NCBI GenBank assembly: GCA_043750125.1
Contig: JAYVCD010000352.1
Span: 1-11,528 of the forward strand
Origin: Archangiaceae bacterium
Lineage (GTDB): Bacteria; Myxococcota; Myxococcia; Myxococcales; Myxococcaceae
Reading direction: 5' to 3'
DNA length: 11,528 nt
The position numbers and the translations under genes were made by a program. Positions within the stretch are counted from its first letter, which is position 1. Each line of letters starts with the position of its first letter. Positions 2,073 to 11,528 of this stretch are shown piece by piece. A model generated the notes under the pieces. It made no database searches. It had not been told where the DNA came from and worked only from the letters and a program-made list of their open reading frames with translations.

Positions 2073-2794
2073 TCACTTCGCCTGCTGCCTTCGGCATTCG
2101 AAGTGAGCGTTGCACCCGACGTGGCTGAACGCCTGGGGGAAATTTCCCAGCAACCGCTTCCCGACCGGGTCGTACTCTTCGGAGAGCAACCCGAGCTCGT
2201 TGCGAACGCTGAGCAGCCGTTCGAACAACACCCGCGCCTCGGCCACCCGGCCCGCGAGGGCGTAGTTGTCCGCGAGCCAGAACGAGCAGGCGAGGAAGGC
2301 TCCTTCGCCCCTGGGCAAACCATCGGTGGGGTTCTCGTCGGTGGAGTAGCGCTCGACGAAGCCGTGGCGAAACAGATCCTTTTCGATCGCGCGCACCGTG
2401 CCCTGAATCCTCGGATCATGCGCCGGAAGGAACCCCACCACCGGGAGCAACAGCGTGCTCGCGTCGCGTTGCGCCCGCCACACGTCCACCGGGCCAGAAC
2501 GAACGGAATTCGTTCGCCGGTGTGCACGACGAAATCCGCGACCGTCGTGAGGTCGCGACCATGGGGCTCGACCGGGGTGCTCAAATCGAGCGCTTCGGGT
2601 CCAGCGATCGCGCGCACGACGCCGTCGATGCGGCGAACCCATGAAACCACCGAGCCGCAGTCGAACCGGATGATCAGCTCGGCCTGCAGGCGCACTTCGC
2701 CGCGGACTCCTTCGACCAGCCGCATTAAATTCGGCTGTTCGTCGCGCGGGGGCATGAAGTCGATCACCCGCACCGTGCCCGTCGACGTATCGAC
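2073..2794 (-). pseudogene. Glycoside hydrolase family 15 (trehalase/glucoamylase-like) remnant
   Basis: The N-terminal domain fragment (GTVRVIDFMPPRDEQPNLMRLVEGVRGEV...RFDCG...GERIPFVL) and the C-terminal fragment (DASTLLLPVVGFLP...EGAFLACSFWLADNY...LGLLSEEYDP...GNFPQAFSHVG) are in different frames, joined near 2492. The 5' end and the central catalytic region are missing. There is an in-frame stop at 2795-2797 just upstream. Confidence 0.9.
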
Positions 2795-2830
2795 TCAGGT
2801 CGTATGGGTCGGAAGCTGGGGCGGCGCCAC

Positions 2831-3103
2831 TCAATCGCCCTCGGCGAGCACGCGGCCGCTCACCCGATGCGCAATGCTGACCGCCCAGGTGGAAAGGGAA
2901 GAGCGAAACCGAAACGAAGGCAACGCGCGCAGCACCTCGAGCAGGCTTTCCTGCACAGCGTCATCGACACCGGCGGGAAAGCCGAACGAGAAGCCGATTT
3001 GACGATGCAGCAACGGGTAGAGGAACTCGGCCACCTGCGCCTGGGCCCTTTTTTCGCCGCGGCTCGCGCGCGCGATCATGTCCTCATTCGGCGGTGCGGA
3101 CAT
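2831..3103 (-). pseudogene. Truncated ECF sigma-70 factor (region 2 only)
   Basis: DMIARASRGEKRAQ...VDDAVQESLLEVLRALPSFRFRSSLSTWAVSIAHR is a clear ECF region 2. The ORF stops at 90 aa with no region 4 HTH, and the GH15 remnant begins about 36 nt later. Confidence 0.8.
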
Positions 3104-3137
3104 TTCAGGTCTTCAGGTGCGGCGGTGCAAAGTCGCC

Positions 3138-3165
3138 TCAGGTGGGTGCCGATGTCGCAAAGTCC
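3138..3165 (-). promoter_or_regulatory. Candidate ECF (sigmaE/AlgU-like) promoter upstream of the sigma gene
   Basis: On the - strand, GGACTT(3165-3160)-N17-CCTGA(3142-3138) resembles GAACTT-N16/17-TCTGA and ends 34 nt upstream of the sigma ATG. Confidence 0.4.
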
Positions 3166-3240
3166 CCCGGTTTTCGGCGGCGGCCGAGCCGACGATCACG
3201 CGTGTCTCGGGCCGGCACGGGATTTGTACGGTGCAGTCCT

Positions 3241-3843
3241 GTGAAAAATACTCGCGAGCTTCGACGTGCGTTGTGGATCCCCTCGGTGGTGCTGTGGGCG
3301 GCAGCTTCCTGTGCCAGCTACGACCAGCTGATTGAAAAGGACCAGGCCTGCCAGATGAAGTGGGCGGACCTCGAAGCGAACCTTCAGCGCCGCGCGGACT
3401 TGATTCCCAATCTCGTCGCGACCGTCAAAGCCGCCGCCGCCCAGGAGCAGACGACGCTGACCAAGATCGCCGAAGCCCGGGCGTCTGCAACTTCGATTCA
3501 TTTGACCGCCGAAGACACCCAGGACCCCGCGAAGATGGCGGCGTTTCAGGCGGCCCAGGACCAGCTGAAGGGTGCGCTCTCGCGGTTGCTGGTGGTTCAA
3601 GAGCAGTACCCGGACCTCAAGTCGAACGGGAACTTCCGCGACCTGCAGGTCCAACTCGAAGCGACCGAGAACCGGATTCTTCGCGCCCGCGAGGAATACA
3701 ACCGCGTGGTGGGCGAATACAACTCGGAGCTCGGCAAGGTCAAAGGGAAGATCATCAAGCGCGCCACCGGCGGCACGTTCATGCCGCGCCCCTACTTCGC
3801 CGCTTCTGCCGGGTCGGAAGTCGCGCCCAAGGTGAACTTCTGA
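3241..3843 (+). CDS. lemA: LemA family protein (probable lipoprotein)
   Basis: Likely start GTG 3241. Lipobox-like AASC, then WADLEANLQRRADLIPNLVATVK, QLKGALSRLLVVQEQYPDLKSNGNFRDLQVQLEATENRI, and C-terminal APKVNF. Confidence 0.95.
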   Translation: MKNTRELRRALWIPSVVLWAAASCASYDQLIEKDQACQMKWADLEANLQRRADLIPNLVATVKAAAAQEQTTLTKIAEARASATSIHLTAEDTQDPAKMAAFQAAQDQLKGALSRLLVVQEQYPDLKSNGNFRDLQVQLEATENRILRAREEYNRVVGEYNSELGKVKGKIIKRATGGTFMPRPYFAASAGSEVAPKVNF

Positions 3844-4625
3844 GCCTTGCGGCCCATGCGCGGGGTGCGGCCTGGGCGTTGTTGCTCGTGGCCTGCAGCG
3901 CCTGGGCAGACTTTCGTCCACCGCCGATTCAAGGGCACATCACGGACACCGCCGGAAAGCTGACCGGTGAACAAGTTCAATCGCTGGACCGATCACTCGA
4001 GGCGTTGAGGACGACGTCGGGCTTCGAGATCGCGGTGTTGCTGATTGGCTCTCTCGAAGGCCAGAACATCGATGACGTCGCGTACACCACGTTCAATACC
4101 TGGAAGATCGGAAAGAAGGACGCGGATAACGGGGTGCTGCTGGTCATCGCGCCGAACGAACGCAAAGTGCGGATCGAGACGGGGAAGGGCGTCGGCGGGG
4201 CGCTCACCGATTTGCAGTCGCACGACATCATTCGCGATCGGATTTCGCCCCAGCTGAAGGCGGACCACTTCTACGAAGCGATCGAAGAAGGGACAACGGC
4301 GATCGGCCTGGCGCTGACGGGCAAGGCGTTTCCAGATCGGCCCGTGGGGTTTGCGCCCGATGACGCCGGCGCCCGGCCGCCCACCCGCACCGGTTTTCCG
4401 TTCTCGTCGGCGGTTCCTGTTTTTCTGTTCCTCGGGCTGGGGCTGGCGCTTCGGCTCTTGCGTGGGCGCAGAGGAGGAAGGGGCGGGGGCGGAGGGTTTT
4501 GGGGCGGCGGCTTCGGAGGTGGAGGCTTCGGAGGTGGAGGAGGCAGCAGCTCGGACAACAGCGGCGGCGGCTACTCCGGAGGCGGCGGCAGCTCGGGCGG
4601 CGGCGGCTCGAGCGACAGCTACTGA
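3840..4625 (+). CDS. TPM domain (YgcG-like) membrane protein with Gly-rich C-terminal tail (start uncertain)
   Basis: GHITDTAGKLT, WKIGKKDADNGVLLVIAPNERKVRIETGKGVGGALTD, a TM segment (AVPVFLFLGLGLAL) and a GGGFGGG...SGGGGSSDSY tail. It is the usual lemA neighbour. Start candidates are CTG 3840 (overlapping the lemA stop) and TTG 3879. Confidence 0.92.
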   Translation: MSLAAHARGAAWALLLVACSAWADFRPPPIQGHITDTAGKLTGEQVQSLDRSLEALRTTSGFEIAVLLIGSLEGQNIDDVAYTTFNTWKIGKKDADNGVLLVIAPNERKVRIETGKGVGGALTDLQSHDIIRDRISPQLKADHFYEAIEEGTTAIGLALTGKAFPDRPVGFAPDDAGARPPTRTGFPFSSAVPVFLFLGLGLALRLLRGRRGGRGGGGGFWGGGFGGGGFGGGGGSSSDNSGGGYSGGGGSSGGGGSSDSY

Positions 4626-4641
4626 CTTTCAGCGGCGCGTC

Positions 4642-5355
4642 TTACTGAACGCTGATCGGCATGTTGTAGAGGAAGCAGACGGGAACCTGCTGGGCCTTGT
4701 AGAGCCACCCTTCGCGGATGCCCGCGACGATCGCTTCGTCCGCACCGGGAACGCTCTTCACCACCCCGACCTCATAGACCCGGCCGTCGATGCCGACGCA
4801 GACCTTGTACATCCCCGTCAGCTGCGCGCCCCGGTGCGCCTGCTTGAAGACCTCGGGAAGCCGCAATGGCGTTTGCTGAAGCATGTCGCGCTGAATGACG
4901 AACGCAGGAACGTTTTTGGGCTTGGCAGGCGCTGCGGGCGCATCGGGCGAAACCAGACCTCCCACCGTTCCACCCGCGACGCCGCCCTCGGTTCCTCCTT
5001 CGACGCCACCGGCGGCCGCAGGCGCTTCGATTTCCGACGGCTCGGCAGCCTGGGGCGCATGAGCCACCTCTTGCGGGCGGGGCATCGAAGTCGGAATTTC
5101 CACCTTGTGAACCGGCTCGACCTTCACCGGGTTCGGGCGTGGAGTCTTTGCCGCGGGCGGAGGAGGCGGGGGCCGTGCCACCGGGGGCGGAGGAGGCGGC
5201 GGTTTGTAGAAGGTGAGGGCGAGCGGCTCGTTTTTTCTTGCCGAGGGCGAGTCCAGTTTGAGCACCAGCCCCAGCACTCCGAGATGAAGGACGACCGAAA
5301 ACGCCGCGGCGCGGGCGGGAAAACGACGTCGCTGGACCGCGTACTGCGCGAACAT
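4642..5355 (-). CDS. TonB-like energy transducer (N-terminal TM, Pro-rich spacer, TonB_C-like domain)
   Basis: ATG 5355 (TTG 5361 is an alternative). The TM helix has the TonB SxxxH motif (FSVVLHLGVLGLV), followed by KPPPPPPPVARPPPPPP, a GGVEGGTEGGVAGGTVGG repeat and a C-terminal domain YKVCVGIDGRVYEVGVVKS...WLYK...PVC. Confidence 0.85.
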   Translation of the reverse strand: MFAQYAVQRRRFPARAAAFSVVLHLGVLGLVLKLDSPSARKNEPLALTFYKPPPPPPPVARPPPPPPAAKTPRPNPVKVEPVHKVEIPTSMPRPQEVAHAPQAAEPSEIEAPAAAGGVEGGTEGGVAGGTVGGLVSPDAPAAPAKPKNVPAFVIQRDMLQQTPLRLPEVFKQAHRGAQLTGMYKVCVGIDGRVYEVGVVKSVPGADEAIVAGIREGWLYKAQQVPVCFLYNMPISVQ

Positions 5356-5425
5356 TCCCAAGCCGTCTCACCCCTGCGCCGAGTTTTCAAGTTGTCGTTC
5401 GCCAGTTGTGATAGCCGCGCCCCCC

Positions 5426-6373
5426 ATGCGAATCGATTGCTGTGGCGTTGCGCTGATTTTGGCGCTGATGGCCTGCGGCGCCCACGACCCCTCGACCACG
5501 GCGGATCCTCAGCAGGGATTCATCGACGGTTCGGGGTTGGACGCCAAGTTCCTTCCCTCCAAGTGCGACAACAAACCCTGTTACGTCGGCCAGGCCGCGT
5601 TCGCCCGCGGTGAGGCGCTCTTTTTCTACAACCTGGGCACGATTCCCACCGCGACGTTTCCGGCTCAGAAGGCCGCCAGTGCGCCGCCCGTCTACACCGT
5701 GCCGGAATGCGACACCGTCGGCACGTACGAACCGATGCGCGATGCCTTTGCTCCTTCGCAGCAGCTGCCGCTGTTCTCGACGCTGCCGCTGACGAGCAGA
5801 GTGATCGGCGCGCTGGTGTTGCCCTTCGTCAACGTGACTGCCGCCACTCACCCCAAGCCGTTTGCCTGCAACGCGGTCAAGGACGCCGCCGACGTGAGCA
5901 GTGATGCCGCCAAGCCCGGCAAGTTCGGCCTGACTCCGGCAGGTGCCCCTGAAGTTCGACTCTGGGCCGTGGTCGACCCCACCGTGCCGCTCAACCCGAC
6001 CAGTCCGGACTTCAAGCTCGGCAGCGCGCTGGGTTGGTACAAGTCGCTGCTGCTCACCTACCTCGACGGAGGTCCGGTGCCGGTGAACGAGGCCGGCGAG
6101 CTGGTCGCGATGGACGGGATCATTCTCGACCCGGCCGGGCTGACCACTTTCGCCAAGACCACGGATCCGAAAGTGATTCTGTTGCCCTTCAAGCGCGGCG
6201 AGGCCGGCTTCTCTCCGATTGTTCGGCTTCACAGCTTTCGGTTCCCTTCGGGAAAAGGTCCCGGTGACTTCACCGGCATCTGCCTGAGCGGAATGAGCTG
6301 CGGCGCCAAAGAGATCAGCTTCATCCAGGCGAGCCCCACTTCCTTCAACACCGTCTTGATCGCGGCCCAATGA
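5426..6373 (+). CDS. Lipoprotein of unknown function, first gene of the TBDR operon
   Basis: ATG 5426 (GTG 5408 is an alternative). Signal peptide with lipobox LMAC, several Cys residues, and a stop codon overlapping the receptor start (ATGA at 6370-6373). Confidence 0.85.
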   Translation: MRIDCCGVALILALMACGAHDPSTTADPQQGFIDGSGLDAKFLPSKCDNKPCYVGQAAFARGEALFFYNLGTIPTATFPAQKAASAPPVYTVPECDTVGTYEPMRDAFAPSQQLPLFSTLPLTSRVIGALVLPFVNVTAATHPKPFACNAVKDAADVSSDAAKPGKFGLTPAGAPEVRLWAVVDPTVPLNPTSPDFKLGSALGWYKSLLLTYLDGGPVPVNEAGELVAMDGIILDPAGLTTFAKTTDPKVILLPFKRGEAGFSPIVRLHSFRFPSGKGPGDFTGICLSGMSCGAKEISFIQASPTSFNTVLIAAQ

Positions 6374-9177
6374 CCCCTTCGACTTCGACCGCAGCATGGA
6401 AGAGCTTCGCCCTGGCCGTCGTGCTCGCCGGCGCTCCTGCCTGGGCTGCGGGTGAGATCACCGGGCGACTGACCGGGTTCGTGTATGACCCGACGGCCAG
6501 TGGGCTGGGCGAAGTGCCGCTCACGCTCAGGGGCAGCGCGTTGATGAAGCCGCTGACCCGCACCTCGGGTGACGACGGCCACTACGAGTTCCCGCTTCTT
6601 CCTCCGGGCAATGACTACGTGCTCGAGGTCGATGTGCCGGGGTTCGCTCCCATTCGGAAGACGCGCATCGTGGTTGAGCTCGGCCGCACCACGTCGGTCG
6701 ATGTGAAGCTCGACGTGATGACCGAGACGACAGCGGCGACCTACGAGATCGTCGAAAAGGTCAACCCGATCATGGCGGCAGATTCGGCGCAATCGACGAC
6801 GGTGGTGACGGCCGAAAAAGCCTCACAGACCCCGGTGTTCCACCAGGTCGAACGGATGGCGTCGCAGGTGGCCGGAGTGGGTCCGGGGACCCGCCCTTCG
6901 ACCCGCGGTGGCCTTGCCAGATACGGAAAATTCTACGTCGACGGAATGGACACCACCGACATCAGCGACGGCTCGATCACCGCCCCGATGAACTTCGACG
7001 TGGTCGACCAGTTCGAGATCATCACCGGCGGTTTCGACGCGCAGTACAACGCGCTCGGAGCGGTGACGAACGTGGTCACCATGAGCGGCAGCAACAAGCT
7101 GAAGTACGACGTGAACCTCACCTTGAGCCCCAGCTGGATGACCGCGAAAAATCCGGTCCCCGGCAGCCAGGGTTCCTTTGTCGGCACCTACCTGGACAAC
7201 CCTTCGCTGACCCTGGCCGATGCGTATTTCTATTCGCCGGTCGCGGTGCTCAGCGGGCCGATCATCAAAGACAAGCTGTGGTTCTCGGCTTCCGGTCAGC
7301 TGAATTTCAACCGCCGCCAGAGCCTGGTTTCCACCCCTTATTCCCCTCAGGAAAATCGGAGCACCGACACCGTGACTGGCCTCGCCCGCCTCAAGCTGAC
7401 CTGGCAGGCGACCGCCCGCGACCGGGTCTCGCTGGCGTTCAACTACGACCACAACACCATCGACAATGTGATCGGCAACGGGACGGTGACTCTGGACGCG
7501 GACCAGCGAATCGATCGCGGCGGGTTCTTCTTGATCGCCAATTACGACCACTCGTTCTCCGACAACGTCCTCTTTCAGCTTCAGGCAGGAATGACGCACA
7601 AGAATGTGAACCAGGATCCCGAGAAGGACACCGGGCTGGTCTCGCACTTCGATTCTTCCCAGCGGGTGAGCCAGTTCAGCCCCGGGGCGATCGCCGCCGA
7701 CATCCCCGGAAATTTTCTTCACGAATCAAAGCAGCGGATCCAGTTCGACCCGACGTTGCTCGTCAACATCGGGCACCATCAGTTGAAGGGCGGGGTGCAG
7801 CTGTCCTACCAGCGCGGCTCGCAATCGACCGGGGTGACCCAGGCGCAGCGCTTCATCGACCGCGGCGGGGTGTGTGATCCCGGGAATCCGGCAACGTTCG
7901 GGTTCTGCAGCCAGCACGTCGATTTCTACAACCAGGACGGCGAGCTCGCGCCGCAGCGAGGGCTGGGAACCGTCTTCACCACCGGAGTTTTCGTCCAGGA
8001 TCGTTGGACGATCAACCGCCACCTCACCGTGGTGCCGGGCCTGCGGGTCGACGTGGGAAACATTTACGGCAACGGAACGCCGATCGCGACCCTGGTGGGC
8101 GTCGGGCCCCGGCTGTCCGCGGTCTGGGACGTGCTGGGCGATCGGCAGACGATCGTCACCGGGCACTATGGGCGGTCGAACGACGTGGGCAACGTGCTGG
8201 TCGCGCAGCACGCGAACCCCGCGTTGACCCAGGTCACCTCGACGTTTTCCAACGGAGGGTTCGCCAACTGTCAGCCGAACGTCGCTTCGCCCGGCTGCAC
8301 TCAATCGGGAGGAAGCCGCACCTTTGGGCCGGGGGCCGCTCCGTCGCTGGACGAGATCGCGTTCGGGGTGAAGCACGAGATCCTCGAACGGACCGCGGTG
8401 GGGGTGGACTTCACCTGGCGTCGCTACTCGAACATGTGGGCCGACCGCGAGACCAACCGGATCTATGACCCGACCGGGACCCGGGTCGTCGACTACGCCA
8501 ACGGAATCCCCGAAAGCCGGCTGCAGGCCGCGCCTTCCCGCGAGGCGTTTCGCGAATACAAAGGAGTCGACCTGTGGGTTCAGGGTACGCCCGGCAACTG
8601 GGACCTGCTGGCCAGCTACACGCTGGCGTTCAACACCGGAACCGTCGACGACTACTTCTCGGGAATCTTGCTCAACCCGCGCTACACGCCCTACTACTAC
8701 GGGGCCGTGAGCGACGATCGCCGACACACTCTGAAGGGCAGCGTCTCGTACAAGACGCCGTTCGGGCTCGACGTGGGGGTCCGGGTTCAATACCTGTCGG
8801 GCAATCCGCTTTGGGAAACGTTCCCCAACCCCAACCCCTCGGAGACTCAGCGGGTGATTCGCTCGCCGCGTGGCACCGGGTTTCCCAACGACTCGAGCTC
8901 GGGCTTGCCCAATCTGAACGATTCGAGTCAGTGGACCGAGCTGCGCAACCCGAGCCAGCTGATCATCGATCTGCAGGTCCGCTACGACGTGGGGCACCTG
9001 TTCCGGCTGAACGAGCCCCGCATCGAGCTGGTCGGACTGCTGGTGAATGCGCTCAACAGCACCGATGCGACGACGCTCAGCGACACATTTTCCAACGGCG
9101 CTACCAACCGATTCGGAACCGCGCTGTTTCGTCAGGCGCCGCTGCAAGCCGAATTGATTTTGCGCGTTCGCAACTGA
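6370..9177 (+). CDS. Oar-like TonB-dependent receptor with N-terminal carboxypeptidase-regulatory-like domain
   Basis: 935 aa. Signal peptide ending APAWA; N-domain TGRLTGFVYDPT...DDGHYEFPLLPPGNDYVLEVDVPGF; plug STRGG...FYVDGMDTTD...FEIITGGFDAQY...VTNVVTMSG; barrel motifs SGPIIKDKLWF, GVFVQDRWTINRHLTVVPGLRVD and GPRLSAVWD. Confidence 0.95.
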   Translation: MTPSTSTAAWKSFALAVVLAGAPAWAAGEITGRLTGFVYDPTASGLGEVPLTLRGSALMKPLTRTSGDDGHYEFPLLPPGNDYVLEVDVPGFAPIRKTRIVVELGRTTSVDVKLDVMTETTAATYEIVEKVNPIMAADSAQSTTVVTAEKASQTPVFHQVERMASQVAGVGPGTRPSTRGGLARYGKFYVDGMDTTDISDGSITAPMNFDVVDQFEIITGGFDAQYNALGAVTNVVTMSGSNKLKYDVNLTLSPSWMTAKNPVPGSQGSFVGTYLDNPSLTLADAYFYSPVAVLSGPIIKDKLWFSASGQLNFNRRQSLVSTPYSPQENRSTDTVTGLARLKLTWQATARDRVSLAFNYDHNTIDNVIGNGTVTLDADQRIDRGGFFLIANYDHSFSDNVLFQLQAGMTHKNVNQDPEKDTGLVSHFDSSQRVSQFSPGAIAADIPGNFLHESKQRIQFDPTLLVNIGHHQLKGGVQLSYQRGSQSTGVTQAQRFIDRGGVCDPGNPATFGFCSQHVDFYNQDGELAPQRGLGTVFTTGVFVQDRWTINRHLTVVPGLRVDVGNIYGNGTPIATLVGVGPRLSAVWDVLGDRQTIVTGHYGRSNDVGNVLVAQHANPALTQVTSTFSNGGFANCQPNVASPGCTQSGGSRTFGPGAAPSLDEIAFGVKHEILERTAVGVDFTWRRYSNMWADRETNRIYDPTGTRVVDYANGIPESRLQAAPSREAFREYKGVDLWVQGTPGNWDLLASYTLAFNTGTVDDYFSGILLNPRYTPYYYGAVSDDRRHTLKGSVSYKTPFGLDVGVRVQYLSGNPLWETFPNPNPSETQRVIRSPRGTGFPNDSSSGLPNLNDSSQWTELRNPSQLIIDLQVRYDVGHLFRLNEPRIELVGLLVNALNSTDATTLSDTFSNGATNRFGTALFRQAPLQAELILRVRN

Positions 9178-9187
9178 CAGGAAAGCC

Positions 9188-10126
9188 ATGAACCCAAGCC
9201 CTCGATATTTCCTGTTCCCCCTCGCAGCGGCGATCGCGCTCGCTTCGTGCCTCGACGTGACTCCGGCTCCGGCGTCGGCGACCCAGAGCGCGCCGCCCTT
9301 CTTTGTTCCGTATGCCTTCGATGCGGGGGACGGAGGGGACGCGGGGCCGCGCGACGCAGGGGTCGATGCGGGGCTCTTCGATGCCGGTCAGACCGACGCC
9401 GGAACGCCAGGGCTCAAGATCTTGTCGAGCAACAATCGGCTGCCTCCAGCCTGGACGGTGACGAACTCTTCGGTCCTCGCGCGGACTCAAAGCCCGACCG
9501 ACGGAGGATCGACGGAAGCCTTGCTGCACGTCGGCCAATGGGTGCGGTTGGCAGTGCCGACCACCAGCGACAACACAGTCATCGATGATGATCATTGCCC
9601 CAACATCTTCATGGGCAGCTGTTCCGGATTTGCAGCCGCAAATGCGCTGGGTCCGTTGGTACTGGTCGATGCTTTTGGGTTGTTGGGCTCGGGCAGCACC
9701 GACTGCGCAGCGAAGTTCAATGCGGCGCTGCTGCCGTCGATCACCGGCGTATGGCAGGGCAAGTTCAACAGCACGTCGATGACCACGTCCTATTCGCTGG
9801 TTCTGGCCGGCTGCGCGGGAGTCGGGGTCGGGCCCAACTACAACGGCACTGTGCTGGCGCCCGCGAGCACCGACATCCAGGAACTGCAGGCAAGCTACCC
9901 GACCGACAAGCGCCTCGTCACCGTCCGGGGAATCGTCATCGGGGTGACCCTCAATCAGGCCAAACAGCGAACGGTCTTCCTCGAGGACCCGGGCGGAGGT
10001 CCCTTGTCCGGAATTCAAGGCTTCCAGACCGCGGGCTTGATGCCCGTGCCCGCGATTGGGGACTACGTGTCGTTCACCGCGAGCGCCGATGTGCGCGGGA
10101 CCTACAACCAGCTGCTGATTCCCTGA
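9188..10126 (+). CDS. Lipoprotein with DAG-repeat linker and extracellular-nuclease-type OB fold(s), no catalytic domain recognised
   Basis: SD AGGA and lipobox LASC. The C-terminal TDIQELQ...LVTVRGIVIGV...VFLEDPGGGPLSGIQGF...PAIGDYVSFTA resembles the YhcR/ExeM/NucH OB fold (TIxEIQ..VTVxGVVT..FFxQD..SxGIFV..VGDxVxVxG). Confidence 0.8.
   Translation: MNPSPRYFLFPLAAAIALASCLDVTPAPASATQSAPPFFVPYAFDAGDGGDAGPRDAGVDAGLFDAGQTDAGTPGLKILSSNNRLPPAWTVTNSSVLARTQSPTDGGSTEALLHVGQWVRLAVPTTSDNTVIDDDHCPNIFMGSCSGFAAANALGPLVLVDAFGLLGSGSTDCAAKFNAALLPSITGVWQGKFNSTSMTTSYSLVLAGCAGVGVGPNYNGTVLAPASTDIQELQASYPTDKRLVTVRGIVIGVTLNQAKQRTVFLEDPGGGPLSGIQGFQTAGLMPVPAIGDYVSFTASADVRGTYNQLLIP
9320..9403 (+). repeat. Low-complexity D-[AG]-G repeat linker (coding)
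   Basis: Encodes DAGDGGDAGPRDAGVDAGLFDAGQTDAG. Confidence 0.8.
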
Positions 10127-10249
10127 TCGAGGCGAGAAGCGGTCAGTCCGTTCGTCGCCGTTTGCTCGGCTCGAACGCTCCAACGTATGGTTTCTGTTCA
10201 GTCTGCGGGTGAGCCGGCGTTCCCGCGAGCAGTGGTTGGAGGTGACCCG

Positions 10250-11338
10250 TTGAAAACATCAGAAGCAGTTCGGCCTCATCGCGGGACGGATGTCCCGTTT
10301 CTTCAAATTCTCTGCGCGCTCTGTCTGGCGATGGCCGTTGGCTGTGGATCCAGGCCCCTCGAAGGCGACGCCGGCATCGCCGATTCCGGGCCGCAGACGG
10401 ACATCGACTCAGGAACGCTCGGACGAGATGCAGGGCCCGACGCGGGAGAGGATGCGGGTCTTCCCCCCGACAGTGGTTGGGACGCAGGGCTTCTTCCTGA
10501 CAGTGGGTGGGACGCAGGCCAGGTTCCGTTCGACGCGAGCATTCCAGACGGCGGGCTGCGGGTTCGAATCGTTGCAGCGAACACCAGCTCGGGAAACGGT
10601 CAGTCTTATGACCCCGGGGAAGGAATCCGCATGTTCGAAGGTCTTCACCCCGACGTGGCGCTGGTCCAGGAGGTGAACTACGGAACCAACTCGGTGGCTG
10701 ATCTGCAACATTTTGCAGATTTGTCATTCGGGCCTGGCTTCACAATCGTGCGAGAGGCCGGGGCCCAGATTCCCAATGCGGTGATCAGCCGTTATCCGGT
10801 TCTGACTTCCGGGACCTGGACGGATGCCCAGGTGGCGAATCGGGGCTTCACCTGGGCCCAGATCGATCTGCCGGGTCCGCGAAATTTGTGGGCGATCAGC
10901 GTGCACCTGTTGACCAGCAGCGCCGTCGCCCGTGCGCTCGAGTCTGACGAAATCATGGTGCGCATAGGCCAGAGCATTCCGATCGGCGATTGGATCGTCC
11001 TGGGCGGCGATTTCAACACCGGCACCCGTTCCGAGAGCTGCGTGACGAAGCTCAGTCCAAGGTTCGCGACCGGTTTTCCCTACCCCGCGGATCAGCTCGG
11101 GAACAGCGACACCAGCGCGAACCGGTCGAAACCGCACGACTGGGTCCTGCTGAGCAATGAGCTCGCCTCGAAAGAGGTGCCCTTGCGCCTCGGAGTCACC
11201 CCTTACCCCCATGGCCTGGTTCTCGACACCCGGGTCTACACCCCGTTGACCGACATTGCTCCGGCACTCTTGAACGACAGCGCCGCATCGGGAATGCAAC
11301 ACATGCCCGTCGCGAAGGATGTGTTGATTTCGCCCTGA
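10250..11338 (+). CDS. Endonuclease/exonuclease/phosphatase (EEP, DNase I-like) family lipoprotein
   Basis: Likely start TTG 10250, 7 nt after a strong SD GGAGG(TGA) at 10238-10242. Hydrophobic segment with lipobox AVGC. EEP motifs: RIVAAN, PDVALVQE, NAVISRYP, ISVHL, IVLGGDFN, PHDWVL and terminal QHMPV. Confidence 0.92.
   Translation: MKTSEAVRPHRGTDVPFLQILCALCLAMAVGCGSRPLEGDAGIADSGPQTDIDSGTLGRDAGPDAGEDAGLPPDSGWDAGLLPDSGWDAGQVPFDASIPDGGLRVRIVAANTSSGNGQSYDPGEGIRMFEGLHPDVALVQEVNYGTNSVADLQHFADLSFGPGFTIVREAGAQIPNAVISRYPVLTSGTWTDAQVANRGFTWAQIDLPGPRNLWAISVHLLTSSAVARALESDEIMVRIGQSIPIGDWIVLGGDFNTGTRSESCVTKLSPRFATGFPYPADQLGNSDTSANRSKPHDWVLLSNELASKEVPLRLGVTPYPHGLVLDTRVYTPLTDIAPALLNDSAASGMQHMPVAKDVLISP
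10451..10519 (+). repeat. 30-bp imperfect tandem repeat (about 2.3 copies) encoding DAGL[PL]PDSGW
   Basis: gatgcgggtcttccccccgacagtggttgg / gacgcagggcttcttcctgacagtgggtgg / gacgcaggc. Confidence 0.85.
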
Positions 11339-11371
11339 TCGGTCAGACGCCTCGAGCGGGTTGGTGCGAAG

Positions 11372-11391
11372 GCTTCAACACACGTTGAAGC
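11372..11391. terminator. Perfect 8-bp inverted repeat between convergent genes (terminator-like hairpin or operator)
   Basis: GCTTCAAC-ACAC-GTTGAAGC, 33 nt after the EEP stop, with no U tract. Confidence 0.4.
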
Positions 11392-11396
11392 TGAAC

Positions 11397-11528
11397 TCAG
11401 CGGTCAGGCCCATACCCCAGCGGGAGCAGCACGACCCACCCTACGGCGTACCGCACGATTCCGGCCGAGACGGGACGCCACCACCGAAACGGGGGGTGCT
11501 CTTTCCAGAGCCAGGCCGCCATCAAGAA
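11397..11528 (-). CDS. Possible 3' end of a membrane protein entering from the right edge
   Basis: Open frame from the window end: FLMAAWLWKEHPPFRWWRPVSAGIVRYAVGWVVLLPLGYGPDR* (TGA at 11399-11397). It is hydrophobic and Trp-rich, but only 43 codons are visible. Confidence 0.4.
   Translation of the reverse strand, partial: FLMAAWLWKEHPPFRWWRPVSAGIVRYAVGWVVLLPLGYGPDR

Follow-up and report, generated by a model that had tools for sequence, protein, structure and literature searches.

Contig JAYVCD010000352.1 of an Archangiaceae bacterium carries a locus in which a TonB-like gene, the gene for a lipoprotein (lipoprotein-1) and the gene for an Oar-type TonB-dependent transporter (TBDR) form a conserved core, followed here by genes for a lipoprotein with two OB folds and a lipoprotein of the EEP superfamily. 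The window, that is, the whole stretch of DNA analyzed, is the entire 11,528-bp contig, which belongs to a metagenome-assembled genome (MAG) of 6.2 Mb in 460 contigs (89% complete). We consider it an even call that the locus encodes a TonB-dependent surface machine for scavenging nucleic acids or nucleotides, equipped with swappable phosphoesterases, and that it is the myxobacterial counterpart of the Ddb loci of Bacteroidota. More tentatively, the core may be described as a two-component transporter of the Myxococcaceae, a lipoprotein-capped Oar-type TBDR with its own TonB-like energizer, serving as a chassis for nucleic-acid harvesting with interchangeable front-end modules: the HIN-like OB lipoprotein paired with an EEP nuclease, an exonuclease of the PLD3/PLD4 kind, or else a 5'-nucleotidase.

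The TonB-like gene (4642..5355, minus strand, 237 aa) diverges from four co-oriented genes on the plus strand, which encode lipoprotein-1 (5426..6373, 315 aa), the TBDR (P0003; 6370..9177, 935 aa), the tandem-OB lipoprotein (P0004; 9188..10126, 312 aa) and the EEP lipoprotein (P0005; 10250..11338). Because the TonB-like gene starts at the ATG at 5355, where its homologues all begin at the same MFAQ, and lipoprotein-1 at the ATG at 5426, in agreement with the called protein P0143, the divergent intergenic region comprises 70 nucleotides (nt; 5356..5425); it is presumed to be a shared promoter region. The ATG of the TBDR gene shares bases with the TGA of lipoprotein-1 in an ATGA overlap at 6370-6373, the TBDR stop codon (9175-9177) is separated from the ATG of the OB gene at 9188 by a 10-nt spacer (9178-9187), and 123 nt lie between the OB stop codon (10124-10126) and the TTG at 10250, the assigned start of the EEP gene, which is preceded by a Shine-Dalgarno-like GGAGGTG at 10238-10244; an in-frame ATG at 10187 provides an alternative start. 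The gene order, the overlap and the 10-nt, 123-nt and 70-nt gaps described in an earlier note on this DNA are all present in the sequence, and so are its three lipoproteins among the four exported proteins: by eye, lipobox-like motifs are found in lipoprotein-1 (LMAC), the OB protein (LASC) and the EEP protein (AVGC), and the TBDR has an AWA-type signal peptide. Pfam domains bear out the assignments of an Oar-like TBDR and an EEP lipoprotein made in the same note; these two proteins are the only ones with matches above threshold, the other three having none, and NCBIfam adds nothing.

Single contigs from Logan span the OB-EEP junction with 0 differences in 4/4 runs (all from one study, two of the runs being possibly the source), and the adjacency is therefore no obvious assembly chimera. 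A scan for sigma-70-like sites found none in 4500-11528, a result that says little because the scan was limited to one promoter type. The terminator scan returned four terminator-like sites, which is below the shuffle mean of 5.9 and uninformative on co-transcription, with none on the plus strand between the genes, including the interval from 9177 to 10250. The EEP gene is presumably co-transcribed with the genes ahead of it, and an 8-bp inverted repeat seen by eye on the plus strand, GCTTCAAC-ACAC-GTTGAAGC (11372..11391, 34 nt past the EEP stop), is a possible transcript end; it is missing from the list of the terminator scan because it has no T-run.

Orthologues of the TBDR (48-67% identity) are present in 42 of 207 other genomes of the same family and in none of four MAGs of the same genus (78-97% complete). 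The neighborhoods of 36 of the 42 were examined, leaving out G288, G325, G350, G324, G327 and G326, the last four of which are partial or split. Lipoprotein-1 is encoded upstream of the TBDR orthologue in all 36 genomes (30-57% identity), and the C-terminal ~95 aa of the TonB-like protein recur, at 64-69% identity and divergently upstream, in 13 of 16 20-kb loci. The TonB-like gene makes up the conserved core of the locus together with lipoprotein-1 and the TBDR; the earlier note had overlooked this unit, and also a characterized analogue in Bacteroidota (PMC12478041, PMC8851478).

The slot that follows the TBDR is variable in content. In 16/36 loci it holds a co-oriented gene for a 5'-nucleotidase lipoprotein of the UshA type (Metallophos and 5_nucleotid_C domains), and in a further 10/36 a co-oriented gene for a lipoprotein of the phospholipase D (PLD) superfamily with two PLD/HKD domains. 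These phosphoesterase genes lie 63-281 nt past the TBDR stop in 25/26 genomes; in G174 an inserted gene intervenes, and the distance is +755. In the PDB, the top match to the PLD lipoprotein is a Serratia protein deposited as 'Phospholipase' (7e0m, E 1.4e-87), followed by the 5'-3' exonucleases PLD3 and PLD4 (E 1e-44) and a poxvirus nicking-joining enzyme; the available text on 7e0m describes a pocket that is nuclease-like, carries positive charge and does not suit acyl chains, and leaves its substrate unreported (PMC8004604). Since three unrelated phosphoesterase superfamilies, counting the EEP gene of the window, occupy one slot, nucleotides or nucleic acids suggest themselves as their common theme.

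Some of these loci show further features of their own. The PLD-like gene of L076 (G302, 11055-12600) is probably frameshifted, as its matches lie in two frames (69% and 81% identity). In two loci of the 5'-nucleotidase variant, L063 (G194, 2758-6660) and L068, the nucleotidase gene is followed by co-oriented genes for a WD40/PD40 beta-propeller lipoprotein and a TPR protein, so the operon may be longer there. A MASE1 histidine kinase, a candidate regulator of the module, is encoded after the PLD gene of L067 (G272, 12798-14969), and in L074 a protein whose N-terminus is, by eye, similar to that of the L067 kinase is encoded directly after the TBDR.

The TBDR comprises a signal peptide, a CarboxypepD_reg domain (PF13620, E 6.9e-11), a plug (PF07715, E 2.8e-5) and a 22-strand-type barrel (PF25183 OMP_b-brl_4, E 4.5e-22), and on this domain content its architecture is of the Oar type. 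The protein (window 9160-9177) and all 29 orthologues of loci L034-L062 end in R-V/F-R-N; outer-membrane barrels usually end in a terminal aromatic residue, and this TBDR family does not.

The complex of TBDR residues 240-935 with lipoprotein-1 residues 18-315 was predicted with a separate alignment for each chain. The prediction, a check of the kind suggested in the earlier note, returned an interface score (ipSAE) of 0.74 (runs 0.75, 0.74 and 0.73) versus 0.00 for the best control. The 0.74 mark is attained by 58/80 solved complexes and by 2/110 mismatched pairs, a calibration that holds only roughly here because our own alignments were used. The runs have at least 91% of their contacts in common, with predicted local distance difference test scores (pLDDT) of at least 82 for the partners. 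In the predicted complex, lipoprotein-1 is contacted by TBDR residues 694-710, 770-774, 821-831 and 849-852, which, on a hand count of the strands from the C-terminus, would fall in the long extracellular loops L8-L10. The contacts that are invariant across 25 orthologues include loop residues E694, N696, D700, G703, P770, R771 and N850, and the contacts on lipoprotein-1 coincide with its most conserved blocks. The model supports a predicted binding of lipoprotein-1 to the TBDR barrel.

Lipoprotein-1 has no Pfam or NCBIfam family above threshold and no PDB sequence match; a sub-threshold match to Ornatin was obtained (E 6e-4, 20 bits versus a cut-off of 25), and none of its 25 relatives is named. 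Its structural model, from an alignment of 31 sequences, has a pLDDT of 87.4 and a predicted template modeling score (pTM) of 0.83. No PDB fold match was found for it: the best Foldseek E was 1.8, and VIA-align over 48,161 chains gave two rows only (best Z 2.4), where the best for an unmatched model is typically Z 7-8. The Protein Atlas yielded no credible relative (best feature score 0.83), its own model of the protein being poor (pLDDT 0.25). The lipoprotein-1/TBDR pair is the most original element of the locus.

The 237-aa protein is a candidate TonB-like energizer. The earlier note had called it TonB, and by eye its architecture fits, with an N-terminal membrane anchor, a poly-Pro stretch and GGV repeats and, at the C-terminus, a conserved domain of ~90 aa; confirmation from family models and from the PDB profile search was, however, not obtained. 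The protein (P0001) has no Pfam match at E<=0.1, TonB_C was seen in 1/10 members of its family (E 0.072), NCBIfam gave only low-complexity matches to TolA and GltJ, and TonB structures were absent from the PDB profile search. The C-terminal domain was also not found in the loci of the two closest relatives (L023 and L032). Elsewhere in the same genome (G000:C300, locus L093, 6201-8165), a short EEP fragment of ~80-145 aa, split over two frames, comes after a protein whose C-terminal domain is recognized as TonB_2 (PF13103, E 2e-6); the EEP paralogue is a fragment only, and L093 is a second, decayed TonB-EEP adjacency.

The OB-fold assignment of the earlier note found no sequence support at first, and was then upheld by two fold searches of the AlphaFold model. 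P0004 has an acidic, DAG-rich linker to ~residue 70, followed by OB-1 (~88-215) and OB-2 (~227-312); the mean pLDDT of the model is 75.6, with the globular part mostly >80 and the signal peptide and linker low. Foldseek against the PDB returned OB proteins that bind nucleic acids: Teb1 AB, members of the HIN-200/p202/AIM2/IFI16 group (including 4jbm_B), RPA70, BRCA2 and LysRS. The 50 rows shown by VIA-align are all OB-fold-containing proteins, by their titles and what is known of them, with Z 7-9.2 and with the two domains resolved; among them 4jbm_B aligns over 80 residues with Z 8.5 and a root-mean-square deviation of 2.2. CcmE and YgiW also occur among the fold matches. Because the tool calls such Z-scores common, we rely on the uniformity of the OB-fold list and not on single rows. 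On these models, P0004 is a lipoprotein with two OB folds that resemble those of HIN/p202. As single sequences, the OB protein, lipoprotein-1 and the EEP protein gave nothing useful against the PDB.

The OB family is small, with 18 unnamed proteins from metagenomes. A search of metagenome contigs with eight of the closer OB sequences matched 45 patterns and no relative, and among genome contigs the family was found at one locus only, on the same contig as G333:C700. A whole-genome search with PF18942 (DUF5689) gave no match at the locus, the Bacteroides thetaiotaomicron control being positive. A profile of the OB family reaches 326 proteins at E<=0.001, from which a sample of 10 was inspected: 9/10 have, by eye, a lipoprotein-type N-terminus, 8/10 contain 2-6 copies of an OB-2-like module (domain E<=0.001), and 3/10 match DUF5689, two of them above the cut-off, with the DUF5689 match overlapping the OB-2 match in 2/3. 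We read the connection between the OB family and DUF5689 as remote homology, not membership. One of the ten, P0180, matches nearly the whole OB profile once and has a cytochrome c domain (PF00034, E 1e-12) fused to its tandem-OB module, an odd fusion for a nucleic-acid binder.

The EEP protein has an acidic linker of DSGWDAG repeats followed, in the 383-aa reading, by an EEP domain that begins at ~residue 123 (PF03372 Exo_endo_phos, E 3.3e-7, 30.7 bits versus a cut-off of 24.5). It has 527 relatives, many of which are fused to LTD (lamin-tail, PF00932) and a few of which are named endonuclease by their source; the Protein Atlas says 'EEP family' only. The positions invariant in 24 sequences, N132, E162, H240, D275, N277 and H372, include what we take to be the canonical EEP catalytic set, and from its context the protein would be a phosphodiesterase or nuclease. 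The public gene call begins at residue 149 (P0023, 235 aa) and would lose the first catalytic strand. The 5' third of the gene (window 10187-10700) has a GC content at third codon positions (GC3) of 0.58-0.65, versus 0.78-0.84 in neighboring genes, which could reflect the repeat-rich linker or recent acquisition.

The earlier note had proposed that the OB and EEP lipoproteins are the ExeM/NucH architecture split in two, and this candidate was rejected. NF033681 (>300 bits; LTD, OB and EEP in one chain) matches neither P0004 nor P0005, with 0 matches in their own genome and 0 over the cut-off in 41 genomes including it; neither protein has an NCBIfam match at E<=0.1, and when the OB family was compared with an LTD-EEP homologue by hhalign, only the signal peptide aligned. 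The EEP domain belongs to a subfamily other than that of ExeM/NucH. The locus is like the ExeM/NucH enzymes in combining an OB-type module and an EEP domain for what would be one exported function, with EEP relatives that are often LTD-fused, and unlike them in the absence of NF033681 from both proteins.

The OB resemblance, together with the reach of the profile to DUF5689, instead makes ddbABCDEF/BT3560-3563 of B. thetaiotaomicron the closest known system. As described in the available text of the reports, ddbABCDEF encodes the TBDR DdbC, an adjacent DUF5689 protein, DdbD, whose AlphaFold model resembles the dsDNA-binding p202 HIN domain (PDB 4JBM), and lipoprotein nucleases; exogenous DNA is not depleted unless the locus is present, and its authors read it as an importer (PMC12478041, published in 2025). 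Excerpts of a second report, from 2022, present the same operon as BT3560-3563, with a TBDR, a hypothetical protein and two lipoprotein nucleases, of which BT3563 is a proven extracellular DNase, and define the label 'EEP' in the figure legends (PMC8851478). The window has the same order of TBDR, tandem-OB lipoprotein and EEP lipoprotein, the likeness to DdbC being one of domain content. Directly after the transporter, both systems have a non-SusD, HIN/p202-like tandem-OB protein, with 4JBM appearing in both cases, and both have a PUL-like organization (after the polysaccharide utilization loci) devoid of glycoside hydrolases. Lipoproteins are encoded downstream in each, proven or described nucleases in the Bacteroidota locus and a candidate nuclease in the window. 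The enzyme complement is variable in both, between ddb subtypes in the case of the nucleases. The window differs in its phylum, in an OB protein that lacks a DUF5689 match of its own and is linked to the family through intermediates, in the upstream, overlapping and universally conserved lipoprotein-1 as a predicted binder of the barrel, and in the dedicated TonB-like gene beside the locus. No periplasmic (signal peptidase I, SPI) nuclease was seen in the 11.5-kb contig.

Other known systems are more distant. A relative of the ddb locus in Riemerella anatipestifer, the TBDR pair RA0C_RS04915/04920, is essential for natural transformation according to the available text, and is proposed to carry DNA through the outer membrane (PMC12478041; PMC8459023). 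It is comparable in placing a TBDR beside a DUF5689-type protein, where the window has a protein of DdbD-like fold; unlike that pair, whose outcome is transformation, the window module is joined to a degradative-type phosphoesterase and has no competence genes nearby. With SusCD systems the window has in common a TBDR with an N-terminal carboxypeptidase-regulatory-like domain, a surface lipoprotein predicted on the extracellular loops, and binding and hydrolytic lipoproteins, presumably tethered, encoded alongside. It departs from them in that none of the five window proteins matches the SusD/RagB Pfam family, no PDB fold was matched by lipoprotein-1, whose gene lies upstream of that for the TBDR rather than downstream, and the enzymes are phosphoesterases, not glycoside hydrolases. 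The Oar protein of Myxococcus xanthus, from the same phylum, is alike in architecture (CarboxypepD_reg, plug and large barrel) and unlike in its link to protein export. To our knowledge, Oar has no adjacent lipoprotein partner. Vibrio cholerae, in the sections available, obtains phosphate from extracellular DNA by means of secreted nucleases and UshA/CpdB-type phosphatases (PMC4714964), which parallels the combination of nucleases with a 5'-nucleotidase-type enzyme for nutrition; unlike here, the enzymes are not described in those sections with a dedicated TBDR and surface lipoproteins. The literature searches found DUF5689 mentioned, within the library searched, in three records from two works, both on Bacteroidota, and nothing specific on TBDR-nuclease systems of myxobacteria, the supplements of the Ddb paper lying outside their coverage, and so agree with the earlier note that no myxobacterial system of this kind has been characterized.

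In the proposed mechanism, the OB lipoprotein, whose long acidic tether carries two HIN-like OB folds, would capture the polymer at the cell surface, and the EEP lipoprotein, on a similar tether, would cut it. The fragments would then cross the TBDR inward, energized by the TonB-like protein. Lipoprotein-1, translationally coupled to the TBDR, would sit on loops L8-L10 as a fixed subunit and may serve as lid or receptor, as SusD or DdbD does in other systems. In sister genera, a PLD3/PLD4-like enzyme or a 5'-nucleotidase occupies the same slot.

Several results weigh against this proposal. The earlier note had listed non-conservation of the EEP or OB genes beside TBDR orthologues as grounds for refutation, and the survey showed such non-conservation: an EEP gene follows the TBDR orthologue in 0/36 genomes, so that the arrangement is confined to this window, and an OB gene does so in 2/36 (G248 and G333), where the next gene is not an EEP gene and the EEP relatives lie on other contigs. 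The OB gene thus adjoins the TBDR in three genomes including this one, and the four-gene set is no conserved unit. The general idea of that note, a PUL-like surface system for nucleic acids devoid of SusD, is supported by the HIN/p202 likeness, which DdbD shares, and by the slot phosphoesterases of related genera. In 8/36 loci the slot contains no OB, PLD or 5'-nucleotidase gene, two of these having a fatty-acid hydroxylase instead, and the common theme of the slot amounts to about three independent replacement events among kin genomes, a matter of judgement and not of a statistical test. The distant OB members (30-39% identity) adjoin an M32 carboxypeptidase, unrelated genes and Pfam-less open reading frames (ORFs), with no P0003-like TBDR or EEP gene beside them. 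P0004 and its 17 relatives have no Pfam DUF5689 match at E<=10, and the OB fold Z-scores, at most 9.2, are within the range that the tool calls common. The OB domains are not basic, with net charges of -2 and -1 and a family range of -5 to -16, and such acidic domains are unusual for binders of a polyanion. Among solved structures, the EEP profile has relatives only in the sphingomyelinases C and beta-haemolysin, and the sphingomyelinase C match is weak and partial (E 1.7e-5, 83 of 342 profile positions). Finally, the TonB identity of the 237-aa protein, assigned by eye on its architecture, is unconfirmed.

The Oar-type architecture of the TBDR also admits the opposite direction of transport, in which the TBDR and lipoprotein-1 would export or expose the adjacent lipoprotein enzymes and the products of these enzymes would enter by other routes. 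A precedent exists in the same phylum, as the Oar transporter of M. xanthus is needed for the PopC protease to be secreted, in the text available (PMC6434023). The variable downstream genes all encode exported lipoproteins on long tethers, and cargo beside its exporter would explain why unrelated enzymes appear in one slot. We know, on the other hand, of no lipoprotein nature of PopC and of no place for its gene beside oar, which counts against the analogy. P0003 is not a close relative of Oar, given that genus g5 (21 genomes), which we presume, as a guess, to hold Oar, has no match at E<=1e-50. The lipoprotein-1/TBDR pair is kept in 8/36 loci that have no slot enzyme to export, and the Ddb system, a precedent in which the gene order is the same, is taken by its authors to be an importer. 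We consider export unlikely, if the strongest of the alternatives.

Marginally less probable is that the functional unit consists of the TonB-like protein, lipoprotein-1 and the TBDR only, with a substrate that stays unassigned, and that the OB, EEP, PLD and 5'-nucleotidase proteins are unrelated exported neighbors. The accessory slot is indeed not conserved, with no such enzyme in 8/36 loci; distant OB relatives stand alone, and within the window the EEP gene is set apart by the 123-nt gap ahead of it and by the lower GC3 of its 5' end (0.58-0.65 versus ~0.8). That members of three phosphoesterase superfamilies, all of them co-oriented lipoproteins, should have come to this position by chance is nevertheless, in our judgement, hard to accept; moreover, the OB gene begins only 10 nt past the TBDR stop, and no terminator-like site was found on the plus strand between 9177 and 10250.

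A third alternative, doubtful to a slightly greater degree again, retains uptake and changes the substrate to lipids or other organophosphates: the EEP protein would be of sphingomyelinase or phospholipase-C type, the PLD protein a true phospholipase D, and the OB ligand non-nucleic. The EEP profile finds only sphingomyelinases C in the PDB (E 1.7e-5), although just 83 of its 342 positions are covered. For the PLD lipoprotein, the top PDB entry bears the deposited name 'Phospholipase', but the nearest relatives after it are the exonucleases PLD3 and PLD4, and for 7e0m itself a nuclease-like pocket is described and no phospholipid substrate is reported in the available text (PMC8004604). In L066 the PLD gene has a fatty-acid hydroxylase gene after it, and in L070 and L071 such a gene takes its place, which would fit lipid use; the UshA-type 5'-nucleotidase found in 16/36 loci is, however, no lipid enzyme. 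OB folds also bind non-nucleic ligands, and the acidic OB domains and the presence of CcmE and YgiW among the fold matches could be taken in that sense, against which stands the link of the OB family to DUF5689.

Import of intact DNA by the TBDR and the OB lipoprotein for natural transformation, as in R. anatipestifer, has in its favor the DdbD-like fold of the OB lipoprotein and the essential role of the DdbC/DdbD homologues there, by the available text (PMC12478041; PMC8459023), and is very improbable given the degradative-type EEP protein here, the exonuclease and nucleotidase types elsewhere, an OB gene confined to three genomes including this one, and a window with no competence genes.

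Little is known of how Gram-negative bacteria bring nucleic-acid fragments through the outer membrane as food, and the first TonB-dependent loci for DNA utilization were described only in 2022-2025, in Bacteroidota only. If the more tentative chassis reading is true, TonB-dependent import of nucleic-acid fragments is no speciality of the Bacteroidota and arose, or spread, in predatory soil and sediment bacteria that feed on lysed prey; a counterpart in Myxococcota would extend the mechanism to predators that lyse other microbes. The widely conserved transporter-lipoprotein pair, with a lipoprotein that has no PDB fold match, is a structural target, and the three natural enzyme variants in cultivable genera would permit tests of the substrate.

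The remainder of the window holds several features outside this locus. A LemA gene and the gene for a TPM_phosphatase-domain protein with a Gly-rich tail (3094-4625, plus strand) precede the TonB-like gene; in the other loci this pair was not found at that position, where by eye a DnaJ-like, Hsp70-like and kinase-like set lies upstream of the TonB-like gene instead. On the minus strand, an ORF at 2073-2834 has a match to glycoside hydrolase family 15 in the C-terminal part only (positions 240-420 of 427) and is overlapped by ORFs in other frames; it looks like the remnant of a truncated or frameshifted glucoamylase gene. At 356-1580 on the plus strand, genes for a HipA_2-type kinase (PF20613, E 5e-19) and a DUF3037 protein (PF11236, E 1.5e-40) overlap, and the two may form a two-gene module, perhaps toxin-antitoxin-like.

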